Positions 11,071 to 57,672 of a stretch of DNA of 64,000 nucleotides are shown here, one piece after another. The position numbers and the translations under genes are program-made. Under the pieces are notes generated by a model. That model was not told the origin of the DNA. It made no database searches and was given only the letters and a program-made list of their open reading frames with translations. The stretch comes from Pseudomonadota bacterium (GTDB lineage Bacteria; Pseudomonadota; Alphaproteobacteria; Acetobacterales; Acetobacteraceae): the NCBI GenBank assembly GCA_021808545.1, contig JAKBBM010000001.1, positions 21,330-85,329 of the forward strand, in the 5' to 3' direction. The stretch's first letter is position 1, and every line of letters starts with the position of its first letter.

Positions 11071-12348
<1,278 letters not shown>

Positions 12349-12371: not shown

Positions 12372-12404
12372 GCCCCGGGGACCGCAAGGCCCCCGGGGTT
12401 TTTT
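12372..12404 (+). terminator. Rho-independent terminator after eno
   Basis: CCCCGGGGACC-GCAA-GGCCCCCGGGG-TTTTTT (GNRA loop plus U-tract). Confidence 0.85.
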
Positions 12405-12477: not shown

Positions 12478-13035
12478 TCAGGGGGCAGAGTGAGAGGGAA
12501 CATGATATCGCCGCAACGCACGCGTGAGCGCGGCGATGGAAAGCCCGTCAGGCAGTACGGTCGCCAACTGGCCTGACGGGGACAGAATATAAATCAAACC
12601 GCTATGGGTGGGCTGCCCATTTGGTCCATTGGGCCATGAGACATAGGTATGGAAGGCGGTTATTGTATTCTGGATTTGTTGGGGGCTTCCGCCCAGCCCT
12701 TCAATGCGGGGCGAGAATAAAGAGGCGTAATGCGCGACGGTTTTGGGGCTGTCATGGCGCGGATCCACGGTGACGAAGATGGCATCGAATGTCTTATCGA
12801 GCGGATCAGCCGTTTTTATGGCCCGCGCGAGGCGAAAAAGCGTTGTTGGGCAAAGGTCCGCGCATCTCGTATAACCAAAGAACACCAAGAGATAGCGCCC
12901 ATGGAACTGGGCCTGTGTCACGGTCTTTCCGGCACCGTTCTGCAGGCTGAACGTGAAGGGTGGGGGTGTCTCCGCCGCGCAGATTGCTGGCCATAACAGC
13001 ATTCCAGCAAGAAGGGCCCGGCGTCTTGTCATCAT
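12478..13035 (-). CDS. SCO1/SenC family copper-binding thioredoxin-fold protein
   Basis: FFGYTRCADLCP (CxxxC), FVTVDP.HD, conserved His in QPTHSGLIYIL.P.G; N-terminal TRRRALL Tat-like leader. Confidence 0.92.
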   Translation of the reverse strand: MMTRRRALLAGMLLWPAICAAETPPPFTFSLQNGAGKTVTQAQFHGRYLLVFFGYTRCADLCPTTLFRLARAIKTADPLDKTFDAIFVTVDPRHDSPKTVAHYASLFSPRIEGLGGSPQQIQNTITAFHTYVSWPNGPNGQPTHSGLIYILSPSGQLATVLPDGLSIAALTRALRRYHVPSHSAP

Positions 13036-14645
13036 GCCATCTCTTTTATGAGTTTTGAATTGTCATCATATGAAGCGGCGGTGCCTTCGGCGGTAATGAA
13101 TCGTTTTTGAAGTGTTATCATGTGGCGTGCCTCCGCGAGAAGGCTGTTGGCCGCGGCGTTGGCCTCTTCCACCATGGCTGCATTTTGTTGGGTTACCTGG
13201 TCCATGTCGCCAACGGCCTGGCTGACCAGTTTAAGGGATGAATTCTGCTCTTGTGCGGTATCGCTGATGCGCCGGACCATCTTGTCGATCTCGTCAACCT
13301 GGGATGCGAGATTTGTGAGAACGGTGCCGGTTTTGTCGACATATTCAACACCCGATTTGACCTGGCTTTCGGACGTGGAAATCAACGTCCTGATCTCCTT
13401 GGCCGCCTCGGCGGTTCGTTGCGCGAGGGCCCGCACCTCTGAGGCGACCACGGCAAACCCCCGTCCAGCCTCGCCCGCGCGCGCGGCTTCCACACCGGCA
13501 TTCAAGGCCAATAGGTTAGTCTGGAAGGCAATATCGTTGATCACACCGATGATCTGTGCGATTTGCCGCGATGATTCATCGATCGCACTCATCGCGATCA
13601 TGGCTTCATGCATGACTTCGCTTGAGTTGTGCGCCATTTCATGCGCTTGGCCAGCCAGATCCCGGGTGCGGACGACATCGTTCAGGGTCTGACCAAGCCC
13701 CTGCGAGACCTCGGTAATTGTCGCTGCCGTTTTTTCAAGCGCGGCGGCTTGTCGTTCTGTCCGCTGGGCCATGTCTTCCACGGCTGTGGAAATCTCCGCA
13801 GAGCCATTTTCAACAGTTCCGGCCTGAGCTGCTAAATCGCGAATCACGTCGTTTAATTGTTGCGCTGTAGAATTGAAATCATGGCGCAGCACATCGTATT
13901 CCGGAGGAAAAGTATCATTCAGCCTCTTATTCAGTTTGCCCTGGGCGAGGCTGGATAATCCGCCGGCGAGCGCATCGATCACCTGTTGCAGGCGGGCCGC
14001 GTCTTGCGCGCGTGCTTTTGCCAGTGCTTCCTGTTCGGCTTCGCGGGCAGCCCGCTCAGCCTTGGCCTCCTGTTCCGCGCGTTCGGCTTCACGCTTGGCC
14101 AATTCTGCTTGTTTGATACTGAGCTCGCTTTCCCTGAAGAGACTATTGATCGAGTTTGACATCAGGATTAGCGCGCCGGCCTCGGCGACGAGGATCGAAG
14201 CGTGCAGGATAACCCGTCTGAAGTCGGCACCATCTGGAAACACCAAGGCAGGGGCAAGGAAATTCAGCAGGATATGATGAATCGCGACCGCAAGAGTGGC
14301 GATTATGATTGCATCGCGATCGCAATTTGCCGCAATGACGGCGATGGCGGCAAAATAATACATGTGCAGATCGATCTGCATTTCGCTGCCGCGCGCCGCG
14401 GCCACCATCACCGAAATGACGGCGACGAACGCAACCGCGGTGGTCAGGCGCGCGCTTTTGCCCAGGGGCGCTATTTTCCAGGTGATATGGGAAATGGCCG
14501 CGAGAACGGCGCCCATGATCAAGGGAGCCACCCAGCCATTTCCCGCGAGATATCCTGTGAGAGCGGCAAAACCGGCATTGGCCCACATCCAAATAACGAG
14601 CAGGCGGCTGATGGAGAGGCGCAATGCGCTGATCTTGTCATTCAT
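13032..14645 (-). CDS. Methyl-accepting chemotaxis protein with ~6-TM His-containing membrane sensor, HAMP and MA domains
   Basis: IAFQTNLLALNAGVEAARAGEAGRGFAVVASEVRALAQR; HAMP-like EYDVLRHDFN; hydrophobic N-terminus. Start 14645 is chosen after GAAGGA and overlaps the upstream gene. Confidence 0.93.
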   Translation of the reverse strand: MNDKISALRLSISRLLVIWMWANAGFAALTGYLAGNGWVAPLIMGAVLAAISHITWKIAPLGKSARLTTAVAFVAVISVMVAAARGSEMQIDLHMYYFAAIAVIAANCDRDAIIIATLAVAIHHILLNFLAPALVFPDGADFRRVILHASILVAEAGALILMSNSINSLFRESELSIKQAELAKREAERAEQEAKAERAAREAEQEALAKARAQDAARLQQVIDALAGGLSSLAQGKLNKRLNDTFPPEYDVLRHDFNSTAQQLNDVIRDLAAQAGTVENGSAEISTAVEDMAQRTERQAAALEKTAATITEVSQGLGQTLNDVVRTRDLAGQAHEMAHNSSEVMHEAMIAMSAIDESSRQIAQIIGVINDIAFQTNLLALNAGVEAARAGEAGRGFAVVASEVRALAQRTAEAAKEIRTLISTSESQVKSGVEYVDKTGTVLTNLASQVDEIDKMVRRISDTAQEQNSSLKLVSQAVGDMDQVTQQNAAMVEEANAAANSLLAEARHMITLQKRFITAEGTAASYDDNSKLIKEMA

Positions 14646-14961
14646 GATTTGTGTCCTTCGGCGGTAAGCTGGAACATCCGCCAAGATAACGCGGGTTGAG
14701 TACAGCCCAGGCGCCAGTTGAAAGGGGAGAGGGATCACCTGGTGTTGGCGCGAGGATGACGATATTTTGTGAGATTCCGAAGCGGACCACCGAACCGGCG
14801 CGCATGGCGGCAACAAAGATCTGCGTTGTGCTCCACCAGGGCGGATACAGCAGCGCAACAGTCTGGCTATCTGGGGCGGGCTGCAGCTCGAGCCAGACAC
14901 AGGCGACTGCCGATATGAAGATAAGGCCCAAACCGGGAAGCCATTGAGTGATATGAAACAT
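14638..14961 (-). CDS. Hypothetical membrane-anchored protein (YPPWW...LNPRYLGGC)
   Basis: N-terminal hydrophobic helix; stop overlaps the MCP start (coupled); no competing credible ORF. Confidence 0.7.
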   Translation of the reverse strand: MFHITQWLPGLGLIFISAVACVWLELQPAPDSQTVALLYPPWWSTTQIFVAAMRAGSVVRFGISQNIVILAPTPGDPSPLSTGAWAVLNPRYLGGCSSLPPKDTNHE

Positions 14962-15162
14962 CAGAGCAGCTAATAAGTCTAGAAATGCAATAAACGAGGG
15001 TGATTAATTTTGAGTGAATCGTATGTATGCTGCCCCTGCCGGACGTATCGGCACCATAAACCGCGCCTTCAGCAGCCGCTGGTGCCGGGTGGATTGCGCC
15101 GCCGGGCTCGATGGCGCGATTTTTTCAGGAAGGTCGGCCGCTTTATCAAGATGTCAGCTGAT

Positions 15163-15236
15163 TGGCTGGGGGACCTGGATTCGAACCAAGGCTGCCCGGG
15201 TCAGAGCCGGGAGTTCTACCGCTAAACTATCCCCCA
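15163..15236 (-). tRNA. tRNA-Gln(CUG)
   Basis: Reverse complement TGGGGGA...CCCGGCT-CTG-ACCCGGG...GGTTCGAATCC...TCCCCCAGCCA; 74 nt with encoded CCA. Confidence 0.97.
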
Positions 15237-20173: not shown

Positions 20174-20259
20174 GGCTGTCCGTCCCGCCGCCGGATGGCG
20201 TCTTGCCGGGCCTGCCGCAAAATTCTAACGTTTTTTATAAACGTCTGACGGATTGGGAC

Positions 20260-21024
20260 ATGCGGGGATATTGGCGGGCGGAGCCGGACCAGCAGGACGG
20301 GCTGGCGCTGGCCGTGCGGGGCTTGAGCAAATCCTTTGGCCGTCAAGTGGTCGAGGGGCTGGACCTTAGTGTGCGTCCTGGTGAGTTTTATGCTCTGCTT
20401 GGCCCCAACGGGGCCGGCAAAACCACCAGCCTGCGCATGATCGCCGGGCTGATGCGCCCGGATGAGGGGCGGATCAGCGTGTTTGGGCATGATGTGCTGG
20501 CCAACCCTTTGGCCGCCAAATTGATTATGGCCTGGGTGCCCGACGAGCCTTTGCTGTATGACCGTTTGAGCCCGTTGGAATATCTGGCCTTCATTGCCGG
20601 ATTGTGGCGGATGCAGGCCCGCGCTGCCGAGGCCCGCGCTGCCGAATTGTTGGAAATTTTGGGGTTATGGCCGCATCGGCATGAGCGTTGCGAGGGGTTT
20701 TCCCGCGGGATGAAGCAAAAAACCGTGTTGGCCGGCGCTTTGCTGCATAATCCGCGGCTGCTGCTGCTCGATGAACCGCTCACCGGGCTGGATGCCGCCG
20801 CCGCGCGCCAGGTGAAGACGCTGCTGCAGGCCCATGTGGAAACCGGCGCGGCGATTATTCTGACGACCCATATTCTCGAGGTTGCCGAGCGGCTGGCGAC
20901 ACGTATAGGTATTCTCTCCGGTGGCGCGTTGCTGGCCGAGGATGATCTGGCGGGCCTGCGCGCCCGGGTTGGGTTTGTCGCCGGCTCGCTCGAGGATGTG
21001 TTTTTGCACCTGACAGCGCCTTAA
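20260..21024 (+). CDS. ABC transporter ATP-binding protein (exporter type)
   Basis: Walker A GPNGAGKT, FSRGMKQK signature, LLLLDEP, TTH. Confidence 0.93.
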   Translation: MRGYWRAEPDQQDGLALAVRGLSKSFGRQVVEGLDLSVRPGEFYALLGPNGAGKTTSLRMIAGLMRPDEGRISVFGHDVLANPLAAKLIMAWVPDEPLLYDRLSPLEYLAFIAGLWRMQARAAEARAAELLEILGLWPHRHERCEGFSRGMKQKTVLAGALLHNPRLLLLDEPLTGLDAAAARQVKTLLQAHVETGAAIILTTHILEVAERLATRIGILSGGALLAEDDLAGLRARVGFVAGSLEDVFLHLTAP

Positions 21025-22469
21025 TGTTGTTCGCGCCTGCAAGCTTTCCTTGGTTGCTGCGTCATGAGCTGCGTTTGCTGTGGCGTGGCTCGGTGCTGCT
21101 GCGCACGCGCCGCGCGGTGCTGGTGCCGGTGGCACTGGTGGGCGGCTTGTTCCAGCTCGTAGCCCTGCTGCTCGCGGGGCAGATCCTGCATCATCCGCTG
21201 GCCCCAGCCCAGATGCTGCTGGCGGCCAATATCAATGTCGTGTTTTTGGCGGCGCTGATGTTTTCGCGCGCGATCACGGCGAGCATCGACGTGCTTTACG
21301 CCCGTGGCGATGTGGATTTTCTGCTGGCCTCGCCCTTGCCGCCCGGGCGGGTGTTGGCGGTGCGTATATTGGGGGTGGCTTTTAGCATTGCCGCGCCCTG
21401 GCTGCTGCTGGGCGGGGTGCTGGCCAACGCGTTGGCCATGCGCGGGCAAGGATGGGCGCTGGCCATCTACCCCATGGTGCTGGCCGAGGCGCTGGTGGTT
21501 GCGGCCATTGCCTTTGCCGTCACGGTGGCGCTGCTGATGCGGATCAGCCCGCAGGCGGCGCGCCGGGTGGGGCATGGGCTGGCGCTGGCGGTCGGTGTTG
21601 GCATTTTCATCCTTGGCCAGGCGCCGCGTTTTGTTTCCGCCCCGCATTTGGCCGCGTTCTGGGCCGCCATGTTGCCGGGGCCGCATGGCGGCGGACTGGC
21701 GTTTTTGTTCGCACGCGGCTTGTTGGGGCAGGGGGGGGCGCTCATTGCCAGCCTTGGGGTCGCGCTGGCTGTGTTTGGCGCCATCTGGGGCGGGCTTGCC
21801 AAGTCTTTTGCTGAAGGCGCCATCAGCGCCGCCGCGGCGCGCCCGCGTGGACGTGTCCGTGGCCAGGGGGGCACGTTCCGGGCCAGCGCCCTGGCTGCGC
21901 TGTGCGGGCGGGATATGCGTTTGCTGTTGCGGTTTCCTGGTTTGGTCTCGCAGGTTGCTTACCGTTCGCTTGCCCTGGTGCCGGTGCTTATGATTTTGGC
22001 CGGGAAATTTCGGACTGGCGATGGCTTTGTCGTGGCTGTGCCGCTGCTGGTATTCTTGGGCGGGCAATTGGCGTTGTTTTTCGTATCGGTTTTATCGGGC
22101 AGCGATACGGCGCCAGATCTTGCCGCCAGCGCCCCGGTTACGGCGGCGCTCATCCGCCGTGCCCGTATCGCCACCGCCGCCTATGCCACGGTGCTGGTAC
22201 TGGCCGTGCCGCTGCTGGGCGTACTGGCGCGCGCGCCCGCCTTGCTGGAGCCGCTGCTGCTGGGGCTGGCCGGGGTGATGTTGTGTAACCTGATCTTGGG
22301 GTTGCGCCTGCCCATGCCGCTGACACGCGCGGCATTTGGTAAGGTGCAGCACGGCACATTGCTGGGGTTGGTTCTGGGGCTTGCGGTCAGCAGTTTTTGG
22401 GCGTTCATCATCTGGCTGATGGTAGCACCCGACCCGCTGATCTGGCTGCGCCCGGCCGCGGGCGGCTGA
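21024..22469 (+). CDS. Putative ABC exporter permease (multi-TM)
   Basis: Highly hydrophobic; LLRHELRLLWR, D.DFLLASPLP; TAATG coupling to the ATPase gene. Confidence 0.8.
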   Translation: MLFAPASFPWLLRHELRLLWRGSVLLRTRRAVLVPVALVGGLFQLVALLLAGQILHHPLAPAQMLLAANINVVFLAALMFSRAITASIDVLYARGDVDFLLASPLPPGRVLAVRILGVAFSIAAPWLLLGGVLANALAMRGQGWALAIYPMVLAEALVVAAIAFAVTVALLMRISPQAARRVGHGLALAVGVGIFILGQAPRFVSAPHLAAFWAAMLPGPHGGGLAFLFARGLLGQGGALIASLGVALAVFGAIWGGLAKSFAEGAISAAAARPRGRVRGQGGTFRASALAALCGRDMRLLLRFPGLVSQVAYRSLALVPVLMILAGKFRTGDGFVVAVPLLVFLGGQLALFFVSVLSGSDTAPDLAASAPVTAALIRRARIATAAYATVLVLAVPLLGVLARAPALLEPLLLGLAGVMLCNLILGLRLPMPLTRAAFGKVQHGTLLGLVLGLAVSSFWAFIIWLMVAPDPLIWLRPAAGG

Positions 22470-23377: not shown

Positions 23378-25066
23378 ATGAGCAGGCAAACGAAGCCGTG
23401 GATCAAGGCGGAACAGAAGCTTGGGTTCCGCGCGGCAAGGCTACCTGTGGCGCTGGGCGCTGTGCAGGTGGTGTTCGGGATTGTGCAGGCGGGGTGTGCT
23501 GCGCGGCTATTGGCCGCGGTGCTGCACCTGGCGCGCGGCGGCGGAACGGCGCTGCTCTACGGTGTTTTATTCGCTGCCGCGGCTCTGGCCCGCGCCTATA
23601 CGCAAATGCAGGCGGAGCGCCAGAATTTTGAGCTGGGGGCTGCGGCGCGGCGGCGGTTGCGCGGCAATGTGCTGAGCGTGCTGCTGGCGCTGGGGCCGGC
23701 TGGCTTGCGCGGGCGCCATTCGGCCGATCTCGCCGCCACGGCGGTGGACCGGGTGGAGGCGATGGATGGGTTTCATGCCCGCTGGATCCCGGCAACACAG
23801 ATGGCGCTGATTGGCCCGGCCCTGGTTGGGCTTGTGGCACTCTTGGTGGATTGGCGCAGCGGGCTGATCTTGCTGGTGGCGGGCATGTTCGTGCCGTTTG
23901 CCATGGCGGTGGCTGGCATTGGCGCGGGCGTTGCGGCCAAGCGGCAATTTGTCGCCATGACCCGGCTGCAAGTCCGCTTTCTGGACCGTATTCGTGGTAT
24001 TTCCACCATTGTTCTGGCGGGCCGTGCGGCCGATGAAGCGCGCGCCCTGGGTGCGGCCGCGAAGGAATTGCGCGAGCGCACCATGCGGGTGCTGCGCGTG
24101 GCGTTTTTGTCTTCCACCGCGCTCGATCTTGCCGCCGCCGCCGCCCTTATCTTCATTGTTTTGCGCTTTGTGCCGGTGATGCATGGCGCGCTGGGCCTAG
24201 CGCCGGTGGCGCTGTTCATGGTGTTGCTGGTGCCGGAATTCTTTGCCCCCTTGCGCGGATTTGCCGTCGTGTATGGCGATCGTATGGCGGTGGAGGCCGT
24301 GGCCGACGAATTCTCTGCCCTGCCGCCAGCGCCAGAGGATGTGCCACCGGCCGATATTCGCGCCGTGGCCGCGCATGGCGTGACACTGGCGTTCGAGAAT
24401 GTCGGTTTTGCCTGGGATGAGACACGCGCGCCCGTGCTGCGGGATCTGTCTTTTAAGGTCGGGCGCGGCGAGATCTTGCTGCTGACCGGCGCCTCGGGGG
24501 CGGGAAAATCCACCATCATGGACCTCATTTTGGGCTTCATCGCGCCGCAGGATGGGCGGGTGACGATTAACGGTGCCGCGTTGGAAACCTTGGTGCCGGC
24601 GGCGCGCACCCGTATGCTGGGCTGGATCGGTCAGAAACCGGTGATTTTCGCGGGCTCGATCGAGGAGAATATCCGTTTTGCCCGTCCCTCCGCCAGCGAG
24701 GAGGAGCTGTGGGATGCGGTGCGCCATGCGCACCTGGAAGAGCTGGTCAACACCCTGCCGCAAGGGTTGAAAACGCCGCTGGGTGAGGGTGGGTTTGGCT
24801 TGTCTGGCGGTCAGGCGCAGCGCGTCGCCATTGCCCGCGCCTTCCTGAAGGACGCGCCGCTATTGCTGCTCGATGAGCCGACCGCGCATCTCGACCCCGC
24901 GGTGGAGCGCGATGTGCTGGAAAGCCTGAAGCATCTGGCCGCCGGGCGTACCGTGGTGCTGGCCACCCATTCCACCATGGCCATGGATTTTGCCAAGAGT
25001 GCGGGGGCGCGGCGGGTGGATTTGGATGCGTTGCGTTATGCCAGCTGGCGGAGTGTACCGGTATGA
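23378..25066 (+). CDS. cydD: Thiol reductant ABC exporter subunit CydD
   Basis: RMRVLRVAFLSS-like TMRVLRVAFLSSTALD, PEFFAPLR, GASGAGKST, LSGGQAQRVAIARAFLKDAPLLLLDEPTAHLD. Confidence 0.9.
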   Translation: MSRQTKPWIKAEQKLGFRAARLPVALGAVQVVFGIVQAGCAARLLAAVLHLARGGGTALLYGVLFAAAALARAYTQMQAERQNFELGAAARRRLRGNVLSVLLALGPAGLRGRHSADLAATAVDRVEAMDGFHARWIPATQMALIGPALVGLVALLVDWRSGLILLVAGMFVPFAMAVAGIGAGVAAKRQFVAMTRLQVRFLDRIRGISTIVLAGRAADEARALGAAAKELRERTMRVLRVAFLSSTALDLAAAAALIFIVLRFVPVMHGALGLAPVALFMVLLVPEFFAPLRGFAVVYGDRMAVEAVADEFSALPPAPEDVPPADIRAVAAHGVTLAFENVGFAWDETRAPVLRDLSFKVGRGEILLLTGASGAGKSTIMDLILGFIAPQDGRVTINGAALETLVPAARTRMLGWIGQKPVIFAGSIEENIRFARPSASEEELWDAVRHAHLEELVNTLPQGLKTPLGEGGFGLSGGQAQRVAIARAFLKDAPLLLLDEPTAHLDPAVERDVLESLKHLAAGRTVVLATHSTMAMDFAKSAGARRVDLDALRYASWRSVPV

Positions 25067-26691
25067 ACCCGATGATCCGTATTGTCTCCTTGTGGCTGCG
25101 CGAGGCGGGCTGGTTGCTGCTGGCCCTGCTGCTTGCATTGTCCGCCCTGGTGGCCGGTGTGGCGCTGATGGGCCTGTCTGGCCATTATCTAGCGCTTTCG
25201 CTGCTTGGCATCGCCGCTGCCGTGCCGGCCCTGCTGCCCTTTACCGGCACGGCGCGGGTGGTGCTGCGCTATCTGGAACGGGTGATGTCACACGAGGCGA
25301 TTTTCCGCGCCCTGGCCGATTTGCGGGTCTGGCTGTTCCGGGGGCTGGCCGCCAGTGCCGCCGGGGGGCTTGGCTTCCGCCGCGCGGGCGATGCGCTGGC
25401 CCGGCTGGTGAATGATGTGGACGTGCTGGATGGCGTGTTCCTGCGCGTGTTCGTGCCGCTGCTGGGGGGCGTGTTGCTGTTGCCCATTCTGGCCTGGGTT
25501 CTGGCGCGTGAATCCCTCCCCGCCTTGCTGGTATTGCTGCCGTTCCTGGCCGTGGCGTTCATCCTGCCTTGGCGGGCGGCCCGTGCCGCCCGGGCCAACG
25601 CCGCGCGCGCCGGGCTTGCCATGGCCAGCCTGCGCTCGGCCTCGCTCGATGCGTTGCATGGGCTGCGCGAGGTCAAGATCTTCGCCGCCGAAGGGCGGAT
25701 GCTGGCCGAGGTGCAGGCGCGCGAGGCAGACCTGCTGGCCGCGCAGCGCGATCTGGTCTGGCGGGGCAGCGCGCTCAATGCCTGGGCGTTTATTCTGGCG
25801 CAGGGCGGCATATTGCTCGCCATCGGGTGCGGGTTTTTTGGCGCGCCGGTGGCCGCCATCGTTGCCGTGCTGGTGCTGGTGACATCGTTTGAGACCGTGC
25901 TGGGCCTGCCGCGCGCGGGGCTGCTTTATGGCCAGTCCGCCGCCGCCGCCCAGCGTGTTGTGCGCGCGGCCGAGGCCGGGCCGCCAGTGCCCGATCCAGC
26001 CAAGCCCGCCGCCATGCCGGCGCGTAATAATATTGTCTTCGAGCATGTGGCCTTCCGCTATGCCGAGGACCGGCCCTTTGTGTTTGAGAATCTCTCCCTG
26101 CAATTGCCCGAAGGCTCGCGCACGGCGATTCTTGGGCCGTCGGGGGCGGGTAAATCCACCATCGCGGCCTTGCTGCTCAAGCTCATCGCCCCGGTGCGCG
26201 GCCAGATTCGCCTGGGTGGGGTGGATATTTCCACTCTGCCGGCCGAGGCGTTGCGCCATCGCATCGCCTATCTGGGTCAGACCACGCATCTGTTCGCCGA
26301 TACGATCCGCAACAACCTGCTGCTGGGCGACCCGGCGGCGGATGAGGCACGGCTCTGGGCGGCGCTGGAGGCAGCCCAGGTGGCCGATGTGGTGCGTGCT
26401 CTGCCCGAGGGGCTGGATTCTTGGTTGGGCGAAGGCGGGGCGACATTGTCCGGCGGGCAGGGGCGGCGCTTGGCGCTGGCCCGCACGCTGCTGATGGATG
26501 CGCCGATCCTGCTGCTGGACGAGCCCTGCGCCGGGCTGGATGCGGCAACCGAGATGGAGTTCTTCCGCGTGCTGAACAGCGCCACGGAAGGGCGGACCGT
26601 GTTGCTGATTTTGCACCGGCTGACCGGGGTTGAGCAGCTCGACCGTATCTGGCGCTTAACCGGCGGCGCGCTGGTGGCGGCGGCGGGGTAA
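25063..26691 (+). CDS. cydC: Thiol reductant ABC exporter subunit CydC
   Basis: RVVLRYLERVMSHEAIFRALADLRVWLF, RLVNDVDVLD, GPSGAGKST, LSGGQGRRLALAR.LL; ATGA overlap with cydD. Confidence 0.9.
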   Translation: MNPMIRIVSLWLREAGWLLLALLLALSALVAGVALMGLSGHYLALSLLGIAAAVPALLPFTGTARVVLRYLERVMSHEAIFRALADLRVWLFRGLAASAAGGLGFRRAGDALARLVNDVDVLDGVFLRVFVPLLGGVLLLPILAWVLARESLPALLVLLPFLAVAFILPWRAARAARANAARAGLAMASLRSASLDALHGLREVKIFAAEGRMLAEVQAREADLLAAQRDLVWRGSALNAWAFILAQGGILLAIGCGFFGAPVAAIVAVLVLVTSFETVLGLPRAGLLYGQSAAAAQRVVRAAEAGPPVPDPAKPAAMPARNNIVFEHVAFRYAEDRPFVFENLSLQLPEGSRTAILGPSGAGKSTIAALLLKLIAPVRGQIRLGGVDISTLPAEALRHRIAYLGQTTHLFADTIRNNLLLGDPAADEARLWAALEAAQVADVVRALPEGLDSWLGEGGATLSGGQGRRLALARTLLMDAPILLLDEPCAGLDAATEMEFFRVLNSATEGRTVLLILHRLTGVEQLDRIWRLTGGALVAAAG

Positions 26692-53580: not shown

Positions 53581-54009
53581 TTACTGCAACAGGGTCGGCT
53601 GCGAGGGCGCGCCCATCGGGCCCATCCCCGGTACGGCGGGGGCGGACATGCCCGGCTGTGTCACGCCTGACGGAGGCAGCATCGTGCGCTCATAAAGCGA
53701 GGAAAAGGCCCACACGGTCAGCCCGACCGAGATGATGAAGAGCGGCACGGTCAGCACCAAGGAGACGCTTTTCCAGATCTGCGCGCGCGAGATATCGAGC
53801 CCGAAGAACAAGGCGGCCTGCGAGAGCAGGGCGATGAGGGTGAGTGCTACCACGAGTGCGGCGTAATGCAGGAAGGGCAGTTTCAGCTGCACCGCCAGCA
53901 TCGCCGCCCCCATGCAGAGCGCGGAAATGATAAAAGCGACAATATAGCGCAGCACCGTGCCTTGGCGGATTTCCGCATGGTCCAGTGGGTTGGCGTGATG
54001 CGTGGACAT
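53581..54009 (-). CDS. cyoD: Ubiquinol oxidase subunit IV (divergent, with Pro/Met-rich tail)
   Basis: YIVAFIISAL, three TM helices, FFGLD motif position, last gene of the cyo cluster; TGATG coupling to cyoC. Confidence 0.75.
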   Translation of the reverse strand: MSTHHANPLDHAEIRQGTVLRYIVAFIISALCMGAAMLAVQLKLPFLHYAALVVALTLIALLSQAALFFGLDISRAQIWKSVSLVLTVPLFIISVGLTVWAFSSLYERTMLPPSGVTQPGMSAPAVPGMGPMGAPSQPTLLQ

Positions 54010-54635
54010 CAATAAGCTCCCATCAGATAGACATAGGCATAGATCAGCACCCAGACCGTCGCCTGGAACTGCCAGAACATGCGCAGATTAAGCAGGCGCG
54101 CGACCACATCGGCGGTGAAGCCAAAGCGGGCGATCTGCACCAGCATCACCAGCATCCACAGTAGGCCAAAAATCATGTGCAGGCCGTGCGTGGCAATAAG
54201 GGTGAAGAACATGGAGAGATAGGCGGAACGGTCCGGCCCGTTGCCAGCGGCCATCAGCCCGCCGAGGTCATGCAGACCAAAGCCCAGGAAGGCTGCGGCA
54301 AAGCCCATGGCCACCACAATGCCAAGCGCCACGCCCCCTTTATTGCCCGCCTTCAGCGCCACGGAGGCAAGGCTGTAAGACAAGACGCTACCCAGGATGA
54401 GCAGGGTCTGCCAGAAGCCTTCGGTGATATTCACCACCTGGGCGGGGCCGGGGCCGCCGGCCAGGTTCATCGGCGTGCTCAGCACCGCGTAAGAGGCGAA
54501 CAGACCGGTGAAGATCAGCGCGTCGCTCAGCATATAGAGCCAGAAGCCGAAGGTCCGCGCCGAGATGCTGTCGTGCTCGTCGGCCTCGGGGTTCCAGAGC
54601 CGGGTGTCGGGCCCGGCTTTTGTCATGGTCGCCAT
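54009..54635 (-). CDS. cyoC: Ubiquinol oxidase subunit III
   Basis: FGFWLYMLSDALIFTGLFASY, RSAYLSMFFTLIATHGLH, RMFWQF. Confidence 0.93.
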   Translation of the reverse strand: MATMTKAGPDTRLWNPEADEHDSISARTFGFWLYMLSDALIFTGLFASYAVLSTPMNLAGGPGPAQVVNITEGFWQTLLILGSVLSYSLASVALKAGNKGGVALGIVVAMGFAAAFLGFGLHDLGGLMAAGNGPDRSAYLSMFFTLIATHGLHMIFGLLWMLVMLVQIARFGFTADVVARLLNLRMFWQFQATVWVLIYAYVYLMGAY

Positions 54636-56698
54636 TAATGTGCCTCCACTTCAGAGAGCGGCAGCCGCTTGGGCTGCTCGGCGATCACGCTCGCCGTCTC
54701 GATCTTGTTTTCCATCGCCTCGATTTCCGCGGCGGTGAGGATGTAGCCTTCGTTCTTATTGAAGGAACGGATGATGACCAGGACCATGATGGCGAGCAGC
54801 GAGACGCCCGACAGCCACCAGATACGCCAGATCAGGCCAAACCCAAAGGCTGCGGCAAGCAGGCCGATGATAACAGGCACCCCGGTATTGGAGGGCATGT
54901 GGATCGGCACATAGCGGTCTGGCTTTGCCTCTTCCAGCCCGTTGGCGCGGCGCCACGCCAGCTCATCGCGGGAGTGAACCTGCGGTGTGACGGCGAAGTT
55001 ATAGAAAGGTACGGGCGTATGGGTCATCCATTCCAGCGTGCGGCCCGTTTCCCAGGCATCGCCCTTGGCTGGCACGCGGTCGCGCAAGGAGACATAAAGC
55101 ATGCGCAGGAAGAACAGAACCGAGAGGAAATAGAAGCCAATCCCGACCTCCTCTGCAATCAGCAGCGGCATCCATTGCGGATCATAGAGATAGTCGAGGC
55201 GGCGCGTCTCGCCAGCCAGGCCCAGGCCGAACATGGGGACGAAGACCAGGACGCTGCCGATGACGAAGGCCCAATAGAAGGCAAGGCCGTTGCGCTCATC
55301 TAGCTTGAAGCCGAAGACTTTTGGCCACCAATAGACGACGGCGGAGAAAATCCCGGCGCTGATGGCAAGCACCATGCAGTGGAAATGCGCCACCACGAAC
55401 ACGCTGTTATGCACCGTGTAGTCGATGGCCGGGGCCGAGAGCATCATGCCGGTCAGGCCGCCGACCAGCAGCAGGACAATGCCGGTGATGGACCAGAGCA
55501 TCGGCGTGGTGATCGTCAACCGGCCGCGATACATGGTGAACAGCCAGTTAAACGCCTTAACGCCGGTGGGAATACCGACCAACATGGTCGCGGCGCTGAA
55601 AAAAGCGATCGAGTTTGGCGCCAGACCCATGGTGAAGAAATGGTGCGCCCACACCGACCAGCCAATGCCGGCGATGGCGAAGGTGGCGGCCACCATGGTG
55701 ATGTAACCAAAGAGCGGCTTCTCGGAGAAGGTGGGGATCACCTCAGAGAACACGCCAAAGGCCGGCAGCATCAGGAAGTACACCTCAGGATGGCCCCAGA
55801 TCCAGAACAGATCGATATAGAGCATGAAGTTGCCACCCAACCCGGCGGTGAAGAAATGCGTGCCGAGATAGCGGTCAGCCCCCAGCAGCGCCAACGCCAC
55901 GGTCAGCACGGGGAAGGCGGTGAGGCCGATAATGTTGGTGGAGAGCATGGTCCAGGTGAAGACCGGCAGGCGAAACCAGCCCATGCCAGGCGCGCGCATC
56001 TTCACGATGGTTACGATGATGTTGATGGCATTGAAGGTGGTGCCGATACTGGCGATCTGCAGGGCCCACATCCAGTAATCGACGCCAACGCCAGGATTAT
56101 AGGGCAGCTCGGCCAGCGGCATTAGCCCGACCCAGGCGGCATTGGAGAAATCGCCGACAAACAGCGAGACCATGACCAGCGCAGCACCCGCCACGGTCAG
56201 CCACAGGCTGACGGCGTTGAGGTAGGGGAAGGCCATGTCGCGCGCGCCGATCTGCAGCGGCACGATAATGTTGCCAAGCCCGGCCAGAATCGGCGTGACG
56301 GCGAAGATCAGCATGATCGTGCCGTGCGCCGAATAGACCTGGTCAAAATGGTAGGGCGGCAGATAGCCATGCGCCGCCCCCAGATAGCCCGCCGAATGCG
56401 GACCATCGGCCAGCACCTGCTGGGTACGCATCATCACGCCGTCGATAAAGCCGCGGAAGAGCATGACGAGGCCGACCAGAATATACATCACGCCGATCTT
56501 CTTATGATCGACGGTGGTCAGCCACTCGCGCCACAAATAGGGCAGTTTGCGGAAATAGAGCACCGTTCCCACAACGATCAGCGCGATCGTGGCGGCGAAA
56601 ATGAAGGTGCCGATCAGGATCGGGTTGGTATAGGGGATCGCGCCCAGCGTAAGTCGCCCGAGCAGCGGCGACCAGGGGCCTTGAAGATCAACGTGCAC
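54635..56698 (-). CDS. cyoB: Heme-copper ubiquinol oxidase subunit I (bo3/ba3 type)
   Basis: FRGFIDGVMMR (quinol-site R/D), SAHGTIM, GARD, WGHPEVY, WAHHFF, PTGVK, AHFH. Confidence 0.96.
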   Translation of the reverse strand: MHVDLQGPWSPLLGRLTLGAIPYTNPILIGTFIFAATIALIVVGTVLYFRKLPYLWREWLTTVDHKKIGVMYILVGLVMLFRGFIDGVMMRTQQVLADGPHSAGYLGAAHGYLPPYHFDQVYSAHGTIMLIFAVTPILAGLGNIIVPLQIGARDMAFPYLNAVSLWLTVAGAALVMVSLFVGDFSNAAWVGLMPLAELPYNPGVGVDYWMWALQIASIGTTFNAINIIVTIVKMRAPGMGWFRLPVFTWTMLSTNIIGLTAFPVLTVALALLGADRYLGTHFFTAGLGGNFMLYIDLFWIWGHPEVYFLMLPAFGVFSEVIPTFSEKPLFGYITMVAATFAIAGIGWSVWAHHFFTMGLAPNSIAFFSAATMLVGIPTGVKAFNWLFTMYRGRLTITTPMLWSITGIVLLLVGGLTGMMLSAPAIDYTVHNSVFVVAHFHCMVLAISAGIFSAVVYWWPKVFGFKLDERNGLAFYWAFVIGSVLVFVPMFGLGLAGETRRLDYLYDPQWMPLLIAEEVGIGFYFLSVLFFLRMLYVSLRDRVPAKGDAWETGRTLEWMTHTPVPFYNFAVTPQVHSRDELAWRRANGLEEAKPDRYVPIHMPSNTGVPVIIGLLAAAFGFGLIWRIWWLSGVSLLAIMVLVIIRSFNKNEGYILTAAEIEAMENKIETASVIAEQPKRLPLSEVEAH

Positions 56699-56721
56699 TG
56701 TGCAGACCTTTCTTCAGAATT

Positions 56722-57672
56722 TCACGAATGGGCGGGGGCTTTGGCCCCGGCTTTGCCTTCGTCGTCCGCCACACCCTTGGTCAGGGAGTCCGGAACATTA
56801 TAGACTACGCCGTGCATCGCGGCTTGGACCACCTTGTCGAACAGGCCGGGTGCGACATGCGAGAAATAAGACGGCTTGGCGCCGATATTCACGGTGGGCT
56901 GCGCCAGTTTCTGGAAGGCGGTATAGTCGAGCTGTTTGGGGCTGGCCTGCACCTGATTCACCCAATTCTCGAAATCTGCCGTTGGTACCACGCGGGTAGC
57001 GAAATGCATCCAGGAGAAGCCGGCACCGGAGAATTCACCCGAAAAGCCGGTGAAGGTGCCGGGTTTGTTCACCAGGAAAGCATCCTTGGTATACATGGCG
57101 GGCATGGCATCCATCATTGCCGCGACCTGCGGGATATAGAAGGCGTTCATCACGCTGGTCGAGGTTAGGCGCAGATCGACGCGCCGGCCCGCCGGCACCA
57201 CCAGATCGTCGATCGTGGCGATATGCTGGTCGGGATAGATGAACAGCCATTGCCAGTCGGTCGAGATAACATCAACCTTCAGCGGGGCCGTGGCGGTGCT
57301 GGCGGCGGAGTCCAGGATTTTCGGATTATACGGGTTCACCGCATAGATGCCGTTGAAGGAATAATAAATCAGCACCGCGGTGATGAGGAAGGGAACGCCC
57401 CAGGCCGCGATTTCAATGCCGAGTGAATGCGACCAGTCCGGCGCATAGGCGGCCTTGCGCGCTTTGCGATAACGCAGCGGGAAGATGATGGTCAGTGCCA
57501 AGGTGGGCAGGATGATCAGCATCATCACGCCGACCAGGATCAGCGTATATCTGTATTCCGCGTCGGCGACGGGACCGGTGGGGTGAAAGAGACGGAATAC
57601 ATCCGTCGAGCAACCGCCGAGCATCAGCAACGGGGCGCACAAGCCGAAATAGCGCAAGAACCGCAAGTTCAT
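56722..57672 (-). CDS. cyoA: Ubiquinol oxidase subunit II (lipoprotein, no CuA)
   Basis: Lipobox LGGC, YAPDWSHSLGIEIAAWGVP, STDWQWLFIYP, TSTSVMNAFYIP, GAGFSWMHF; lacks the CuA Cys pair. Confidence 0.94.
   Translation of the reverse strand: MNLRFLRYFGLCAPLLMLGGCSTDVFRLFHPTGPVADAEYRYTLILVGVMMLIILPTLALTIIFPLRYRKARKAAYAPDWSHSLGIEIAAWGVPFLITAVLIYYSFNGIYAVNPYNPKILDSAASTATAPLKVDVISTDWQWLFIYPDQHIATIDDLVVPAGRRVDLRLTSTSVMNAFYIPQVAAMMDAMPAMYTKDAFLVNKPGTFTGFSGEFSGAGFSWMHFATRVVPTADFENWVNQVQASPKQLDYTAFQKLAQPTVNIGAKPSYFSHVAPGLFDKVVQAAMHGVVYNVPDSLTKGVADDEGKAGAKAPAHS

Follow-up and report, generated by a model that had tools for sequence, protein, structure and literature searches.

We analyzed a 64,000-nt stretch of DNA (hereafter the window; positions 21,330 to 85,329 of contig JAKBBM010000001.1, assembly GCA_021808545.1) from a bacterium of the family Acetobacteraceae originating from mine drainage, focusing on a three-gene operon that encodes a small membrane protein with a single conserved cysteine, a methyl-accepting chemotaxis protein (MCP) with six transmembrane (TM) helices and a protein of the SCO1/SenC family (SCO). 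Based on gene order and residue conservation, the first two genes form a pair that is conserved across Alphaproteobacteria, and the small protein appears as an obligate partner of the receptor. As judged from the compared loci, the SCO gene was added to this pair a single time, in the Acidocella/Acidiphilium lineage, where the translational coupling between them has persisted. The two-gene module is broader, and its link to SCO narrower, than proposed in a first-pass annotation of the same DNA, which had suggested a receptor with an intramembrane metal or heme site served by a dedicated SCO and a cysteine-bearing partner; the SCO link is restricted to one acidophilic clade. We consider it very probable that the architecture is that of a bipartite sensor with a clade-specific SCO accessory. 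Our favoured reading as a whole, namely a two-part membrane chemoreceptor that holds a metal and for which SCO serves as a lineage-specific maturation factor, is plausible but falls somewhat short of probable.

All three genes are located on the minus strand. Gene 1 (14638-14961) encodes the 107-aa single-pass membrane protein, gene 2 (13032-14645; ATG start, MNDKIS) a 537-aa MCP lacking a periplasmic domain, and gene 3 (12478-13035) the 185-aa SCO1/SenC protein. Genes 1 and 2 overlap by 8 nt (ATGAATGA) and genes 2 and 3 by 4 nt (ATGA), which indicates that the three genes are translationally coupled; a longer GTG-started open reading frame (ORF) is possible for the MCP, but it runs into gene 1. 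ORFs and sequence agree exactly with the three overlapping minus-strand genes reported in the first-pass annotation, and the motifs it listed (DLHMYYF, AIHHIL, ILHAS, YPPWW, LGGC and CADLC plus a histidine) are all present in the translations. There are no che genes within the operon. An independent mine-drainage assembly (run X1) provided contigs along the whole operon, including an unbroken contig of 1,956 bp that spans the SCO gene, the SCO-MCP junction and approximately 1.1 kb of the MCP gene.

The receptor consists of a six-TM sensor domain (aa 1-165; 14151-14645, minus strand), delimited by conservation, AlphaFold2 (AF2) helices and topology, and a signalling domain (aa 329-485; 13191-13661, minus strand) that matches the Pfam family MCPsignal (PF00015) over its full profile length with an E-value of 3.2e-49. 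The signalling region aligns with those of Aer2, Tar, Tsr and Tap. On its N-terminal side lie a charged coiled coil and a segment with weak similarity to HAMP (aa 224-266; E-value 0.018, 15.8 bits vs. a gathering score of 25 bits). In the AF2 model of aa 1-182 (mean predicted local distance difference test score, pLDDT, 77.8), six long helices were found, one of them kinked at residue 95, and the periplasmic loops of the receptor comprise at most 13 residues. Loops this short imply that there is no periplasmic ligand domain, in agreement with the earlier description of the protein as an MCP with about six TM helices and no such domain, and they leave the membrane domain as the sole candidate sensor. 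An N-in, six-TM, C-in topology is supported for the family: across 153 members, the mean number of lysine plus arginine residues (K+R) was 1.66 at the N-terminus, 1.62 in loop 2-3 and 0.83 in loop 4-5, and 0.25, 0.43 and 1.0 in loops 1-2, 3-4 and 5-6, respectively.

Residue conservation was determined in the same set of 153 representatives clustered at 50% identity, which comprised the best 150 hits plus the seeds. D92, H94, H124, R144, H148 and L159 of the TM domain are invariant (153/153). Near-invariant positions are Q90 and H123 (149 each), M95 (146), E155 (145), D109 (142), C108 (141) and N128 (140), as well as F98, P132, P137 and G139. The TM histidines highlighted on the basis of a single sequence thus belong to the most conserved part of the domain, with H94, H124 and H148 present in every member and H123 in 149, and DLHMYYF, AIHHIL and ILHAS can be regarded as family signatures; this did not extend to H53 (SHITW), which is not conserved. 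According to the topology, TM4 begins with H94 on the periplasmic side, H123 and H124 are located at two-thirds of the height of TM5, and H148 is found one turn into TM6 as counted from the periplasm; E155 faces the same way as H148, two turns further in.

The most constant feature next to the receptor is the small cysteine protein. A homologue was detected in all 85 loci compared (the window, four metagenome contigs and 80 loci of GTDB genomes, searched by tblastn and hidden Markov models (HMMs) from five seeds). In 84 of them, its gene immediately precedes the receptor gene in the same orientation, at a distance of -2 to 174 nt, and the same gene order was found on further contigs and plasmids. 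A word-index search had yielded two close homologues only; the count of 85/85 was obtained by HMM search of all ORFs. With a small-protein gene found alongside the receptor gene in every one of these loci, the operon arrangement is far beyond chance. The only invariant residues of the small protein are C96 (83/83), G83 and A84. The first-pass annotation had assigned the cysteine-bearing upstream protein a partner role, and the protein proved even more constant than guessed. Both the YPPWW and the terminal LGGC motif noted there occur in the window protein (the former as Y37-PPWW), but of LGGC only the cysteine is invariant: most members read A-A-C-F/L at this position, the LGGC(S/G)(S/G) tail being characteristic of the Acetobacteraceae clade. 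The [FY]PPWW motif is kept in most small proteins and lost in the distant, Magnetospirillum-type members.

AF2 modelling of gene 1 (pLDDT 82.9) predicted a TM helix (aa 8-25) followed by a beta-alpha-beta-beta-alpha-beta domain of approximately 70 aa, with Cys96 just past the last beta strand near the C-terminus. On average, 1.98 K+R residues precede the TM helix vs. 0.98 after it, and an excess on the N-terminal side was found in 59 loci vs. 7, counts that include uncurated ORF starts. We therefore predict from these sequences an N-in/C-out orientation with a periplasmic cysteine domain. The protein matches no family in Pfam or NCBIfam, and a profile search against the PDB gave noise only. 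Foldseek returned generic ferredoxin-like folds (RRM, MerP, CopP) at E-values of 0.14-0.3. The order of secondary structure elements in the AF2 model is compatible with the HMA metallochaperone fold, a similarity at non-significant Foldseek scores; assignment to the HMA metallochaperones was rejected, because the loop after beta1 reads [FY]PPWW instead of MxCxxC and the sole conserved cysteine is C96. A further candidate is a SoxY-like carrier with a flexible C-terminal Gly-Gly-Cys arm. Once persulfidated or otherwise sulfur-modified, the arm would deliver sulfur species or oxidants to the receptor, with SCO recycling the thiol. The LGGC(S/G)(S/G) tail of the Acetobacteraceae clade does resemble the GGCGG arm of SoxY, and the cysteine is invariant, but the tail is not of the GGC type in most of the family, no sox genes are located nearby, and neither sequence nor fold is similar to SoxY. 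We regard this explanation as very improbable.

An exhaustive profile search showed that the receptor TM domain belongs to a large family: clustered at 50% identity, the matches formed 4,054 clusters at an E-value threshold of 1e-3, of which 1,827 remained at 1e-10 and 575 at 1e-30. As the Ala/Glu-rich tail of the profile may have inflated the weakest matches, we rely on the stricter counts. A word-index search of the receptor gave only five hits, and the full counts stem from the exhaustive HMM search and a genome scan, the latter placing the family in at least 594 loci of species-representative genomes. Most members are MCPs of approximately 485 aa, and carriers include Bradyrhizobium, Rhodopseudomonas, Magnetospirillum, Rhizobium, Acidiphilium and Komagataeibacter. 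Two loci carry actinobacterial labels (L018, Frankia sp. RB7; L082, a Solirubrobacterales metagenome-assembled genome, MAG), but their sequences and neighbours look alphaproteobacterial, so that these labels probably reflect contamination or mis-binning rather than spread beyond Alphaproteobacteria. In one Bradyrhizobium MAG (L044, 6078-9452), two six-TM MCP genes encoding 489 and 483 aa are arranged in tandem, with a small-protein hit for one of them.

The pair is not confined to chemoreceptors. On plasmids of Sphingomonas paeninsulae (L090, 3507-6796) and Haematobacter massiliensis (L091, 3627-6487), the six-TM domain heads hybrid kinases (E-values of 3e-63 and 3e-55, respectively) of the architecture HisKA-HATPase_c-REC-REC-Hpt. 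A small-protein homologue (2e-25 and 6e-13) precedes each kinase gene with a 4-nt overlap, and the kinase versions keep H94, H123, H124 and H148. The occurrence of the same pair at the head of both MCPs and hybrid kinases points to a portable two-polypeptide sensory input module. In addition, a Shinella homologue is annotated with an extra PAS domain, and a diguanylate cyclase gene directly follows the kinase gene of S. paeninsulae.

In contrast to this constant pair, the SCO gene is a clade-specific addition. The window SCO matches SCO1-SenC (PF02630) with an E-value of 8e-35 (aa 28-156, profile positions 3-133 of 134), and its N-terminus (MMTRRRALLAGMLLWPAICAA) reads as an export signal. Its closest solved relative is ScoI of B. 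japonicum (4WBJ; 7e-28). In the alignment with ScoI, C58-ADL-C62 falls on FGYTHCPDVCP and H144 on DHT, which contain the copper ligands of ScoI, so that the CxxxC motif and the histidine ascribed to this protein in the earlier annotation are in place; FGYTxCxDxCP and the distal histidine are kept in 11/11 operon-linked SCOs. Taken together with the topologies above, a periplasmic-facing position is supported for the SCO domain, the cysteine domain of the small protein and the histidine cluster.

When all ORFs of the 85 loci were searched with tblastn and three rounds of jackhmmer, SCO was found in 11 loci: the window, L001-3, L005 (Acidocella), L006, L008 (an Acidocella MAG), L011, and L012, L015 and L027 (Acidiphilium). 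Among the 85 loci searched, no SCO was found in the roughly 70 of Bradyrhizobium, Rhodopseudomonas, Magnetospirillum or other types. In a rough neighbour-joining tree built on 190 residues of the TM domain, the SCO-linked loci group as one clade of Acetobacteraceae (Acidocella/Acidiphilium-type) whose receptors are longer (530-565 aa). Komagataeibacter (L007), which lacks SCO, nests inside this clade; L009 and L010 adjoin it, the contig of L010 being too short to judge the presence of SCO. The linkage of MCP and SCO postulated in the first-pass annotation is thus tight within one Acetobacteraceae clade and not general in the family, which tells in part against the interpretation given there.

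Within this clade, the SCO start codon lies -4 to +7 nt from the receptor stop codon, although TM-domain identity to the window receptor is 39-59% and SCO identity to the window SCO 37-71%. The flanking genes vary, including those for an MFS transporter, a lipoprotein, an NCS1 transporter, formate-tetrahydrofolate ligase, phosphoglucomutase, rhamnose genes and enolase. In L008 (3244-9692), an ATGA overlap links the small gene directly to the SCO gene, and the cognate six-TM MCP gene follows 4.4 kb further downstream, after the genes for a 760-aa MCP and a 213-aa product in which Sel1-like repeats were recognized by eye. This arrangement points to the small cysteine protein as the direct client of SCO. 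The only oxidase encoded in the window is a cytochrome o/bo3 ubiquinol oxidase (cyoABC, 54009-57672, minus strand; subunit II 56722-57672, subunit I 54635-56698, subunit III 54009-54635), approximately 39 kb away. No CuA motif was found anywhere in the window, which means that the sole heme-copper oxidase there needs no SCO for a CuA site, and no cox genes occur within approximately 8 kb of any SCO-linked pair.

These data bear on the simplest alternative, in which SCO is an ordinary oxidase assembly factor that landed downstream of the receptor in one lineage and has no functional link to it. The protein is indeed canonical, with the CuA assembly factor ScoI as its best match; most family loci lack it, as does the nested Komagataeibacter. 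This account has to accommodate, however, the overlapping or near-touching starts and stops in all 11 loci despite SCO divergence and different flanks, the SCO gene that stayed with the small-protein gene after rearrangement in L008, and the lack of cox genes nearby together with a distant, CuA-less window oxidase. Since the coupling has been kept through divergence, changing flanks and the L008 rearrangement, the SCO link in this clade looks selected rather than accidental, and we consider mere co-location quite improbable.

According to the favoured reading, H94, H124, H148 and H123, together with M95, D92, N128 and E155, which are located in the periplasmic half of TM4-TM6, would bind a redox-active metal that is most likely copper, and the periplasmic Cys96 of the partner might be donated to this site in trans. 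Occupancy, oxidation state or binding of a small ligand (O2, NO or similar) would shift TM6, which runs straight into the coiled coil and the signalling domain and could in this way modulate CheA and the swimming direction. The centre could accordingly report copper supply, redox state or a gas. The periplasmic SCO would insert copper and/or keep the partner cysteine reduced, as for the CuA site of cytochrome oxidase, and lineages that lack an SCO gene in the operon might be served by a housekeeping SCO or by spontaneous loading. The SCO-less members might also mean that, in Acetobacteraceae lacking CuA, the operon SCO makes up for an absent housekeeping SCO. We prefer copper because of the His/Met/Cys ligand set, the periplasmic location, the CuA clients of SCO proteins and the precedents for membrane copper in sensors: known SCO clients are CuA sites with Cys, His and Met ligands, and the precedents are the predicted copper site of MHYT and the Cu(I) site of ETR1. 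The probability of these parts differs. That the module binds some metal or cofactor is slightly favoured in our view, and copper specifically is a tentative assignment, possible rather than probable. Still more doubtful is a widespread, so far unrecognized intermolecular copper centre of the type-1 or CuA-like kind, formed by receptor His/Met and partner Cys at the periplasmic face of the membrane, acting as the sensing element of alphaproteobacterial chemoreceptors and histidine kinases and served by its own SCO metallochaperone in acidophilic Acetobacteraceae; if true, this would be the first SCO known to mature a sensor and not an oxidase.

Several observations weigh against this reading. 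SCO is missing from 74/85 loci and hence is not required for the module to work, and the contact between partner cysteine and receptor is conjectural. The ligand set itself varies: H123 is replaced by Q or D in a few members, including Q in the SCO-linked L008, and the kinase versions carry Q at E155 and E or L at N128. The domain also matches no known copper or heme family. For 27 members, the TM domain had no Pfam match at E <= 10, and there was no NCBIfam match; the TM-domain profile gave no PDB sequence hit at E <= 10, oxidase subunit I included, and a Foldseek search of the AF2 model against the PDB remained non-significant (best E-value 0.57). Homology to the MHYT sensor domain was rejected on the same Pfam result and an hhalign probability of 0.1 against an MHYT-LytTR protein. 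Finally, no operon RNA was detected in metatranscriptomes from the mine-drainage study.

The residue composition of the cluster also fits a function without any metal. Gln, Asp, His, Arg, Glu and Tyr are typical of quinone sites such as the QH site of cytochrome bo3, and the cluster might form a quinone/quinol site or a proton/pH network that drives energy taxis in a manner similar to RegB/PrrB, with SCO relaying respiratory or copper status, a role that has been suggested for PrrC/SenC, and the small protein in a structural or regulatory role. The six helices of RegB bind ubiquinone, its gene is invariably co-transcribed with the SCO homologue senC (PMC9147068), and the window encodes the ubiquinol oxidase cyoABC. 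A RegB-type quinone sensor was, however, rejected as an assignment, because the GGxxNPF motif of RegB is missing from aa 1-185 of the receptor, where only LLNFLAP is present. Moreover, three to four invariant histidines, a methionine and an invariant partner cysteine exceed the needs of a quinone site, and the cluster faces the periplasm. We consider this explanation unlikely.

In L004 (2504-6145), the pair has as neighbours a regulator of the Rrf2 family and a divergent hybrid-cluster protein (Prismane), as is typical of a nitrosative-stress context; in this locus, the reading frame of the receptor is broken by a stop after aa 195, due to either an assembly error or a split gene. An MHYT-LytTR regulator (TMHFVG, SMHYVG, GMHYTA) follows directly downstream of the pair in L016 (9579-11000) and is also found downstream in L019, L023, L024, L052, L074 and L078, all of one Bradyrhizobium-like clade, which puts a predicted copper or gas sensor beside the new module. 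In Magnetospirillum/Rhodospirillales-type loci, msrA (methionine sulfoxide reductase) is located directly upstream on the same strand (L030, 4932-5645; L063, 4319-4954; L086, 4280-8655; L087). A REC-Hpt protein and COX3 (subunit III) are encoded downstream in L086 and L087, followed by COX4_pro (subunit IV) in L086. Boxes of the FNR/FixK type upstream of the small gene were detected in L011 (TTGACCTGAATCAA at -82), L041 and L048 (TTGATCTGGATCAA at -175), i.e. in only 3/85 loci, which exceeds the background (0.003 per 330 nt) but is far from general.

These neighbourhoods hint at redox or NO biology and are relevant to an explanation in which the module holds heme b or another metal (Fe, Zn, Ni) and directly senses O2, NO or redox state like the archaeal HtrVIII, SCO acting solely as a thiol-disulfide oxidoreductase that keeps the partner cysteine reduced, e.g. 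as an axial ligand or redox switch. HtrVIII likewise combines six TM helices with an MCP domain and lacks a periplasmic domain (PMC13401364), SCO proteins have thioredoxin-like activity (PMC9147068), and the invariant histidines and the invariant cysteine would suit a heme site as well. The conserved histidines are, however, positioned at similar depth near the periplasmic face and not as i/i+13-14 bis-His heme pairs, the SCO keeps its full set of copper ligands, each neighbour hint is limited to a single clade, and FNR/FixK boxes are as rare as described above. We give this explanation a low probability, comparable to that of the quinone site.

To our knowledge, most bacterial chemoreceptors with a wholly intramembrane input have no known signal. 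The family described here is large and carries a testable signature, namely three to four invariant or near-invariant histidines, an obligate one-cysteine partner and reuse on kinases, and its clade-specific SCO offers a biochemical handle, as it points to copper or to the redox chemistry of thiols. Should copper occupy the site, the function of SCO proteins would extend from oxidase assembly to sensor maturation, and the module would represent a new class of membrane sensors with a metal cofactor, of relevance to taxis in metal-rich acid mine waters and the rhizosphere. The two-gene module merits definition as a family even if the cofactor idea fails.

Upstream, the operon is bounded by a tRNA-Gln(CTG) gene (15163-15236, minus strand), from which it is separated by a 201-nt intergenic region (14962-15162, minus strand) that presumably contains the promoter; neither a sigma-70 consensus nor an FNR/FixK box was found in this region. 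On the other side, a convergent enolase ORF (11071-12348, plus strand) is followed by a GC-rich hairpin (CCCCGGGG...CCCCGGGG; 12373-12404) with a T-run on the plus strand. This element, seen by direct reading of the sequence and missing from the terminator scan output of the region, is the enolase terminator and the likely 3' boundary of the operon. Elsewhere in the window, the plus-strand regions 20203-22469 and 23378-26691 contain two adjacent genes for fusions of ABC_membrane and ABC_tran, in the layout of a CydDC-like heterodimer, together with an ABC ATPase gene and a gene for a 481-aa membrane protein without a family match. The strongly negative AT skew at 20-26 kb results from the hydrophobic genes located there.

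Compared with known systems, the MCP and SCO of the module are unremarkable representatives of their families. For the TM domain, the partner and the SCO linkage, no description was found in the libraries and papers searched. The remark in the first-pass annotation that no described chemoreceptor with an SCO accessory was known to its author agrees with our literature search, which found no such paper. The module belongs to none of RegB/PrrB, HtrVIII and MHYT, the comparison with HtrVIII being one by description only.

The ethylene-binding domain of ETR1 uses a membrane Cu(I) cofactor for sensing and receives its copper by dedicated delivery. It differs from the module in having three TM helices and Cys65/His69 ligands, in belonging to an unrelated family, and in being supplied from the cytoplasmic side by a P-type ATPase. 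MHYT (PF03707) is reportedly a six-TM N-terminal module with Met, His and Tyr residues near the outer face, for which Galperin is said to have predicted copper binding and sensing of O2, CO or NO in 2001. Similar to the domain described here, it is fused to varied outputs; however, MHYT is a triple repeat of two-helix units, whereas here the conserved residues lie in TM4-6 and an obligate partner is present. With the maturation of CuA by ScoI/Sco1-CoxB, the module shares an SCO closely related to ScoI and a proposed client that offers Cys, His and Met on the periplasmic face. Here, however, the client would be a sensor with ligands from two polypeptides and without a cupredoxin fold.

Among chemoreceptors, HtrVIII (Htr8), the aerotaxis receptor of Halobacterium salinarum, is similar in that six TM helices are fused directly to an MCP domain, and direct O2 sensing through a cofactor bound by intramembrane histidines has been proposed (PMC13401364). 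In contrast to the window receptor, it is archaeal and was proposed to resemble the heme sites of cytochrome oxidase subunit I, and no partner or SCO has been reported for it. McpR of Caulobacter (Louis et al. 2023, PMC10579534, cited in PMC12617631) is an alphaproteobacterial MCP linked to copper taxis; it is unrelated in architecture, being a soluble cytoplasmic protein that is not known to have a TM histidine cluster, partner or SCO.

The closest precedent for an SCO attached to a six-TM redox sensor is RegB/PrrB with SenC/PrrC (PMC9147068). The output differs, being an MCP here and a histidine kinase there; RegB lacks a small cysteine partner, and the main proven role of SenC is the assembly of cbb3 oxidase. 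In both cases, however, an alphaproteobacterial six-TM signalling protein without a periplasmic domain shares its transcription unit with a periplasmic SCO in a redox-related setting (PMC9147068), and in the module described here this co-transcription is indicated, within one clade only, by the 4-nt overlap of the MCP and SCO genes.

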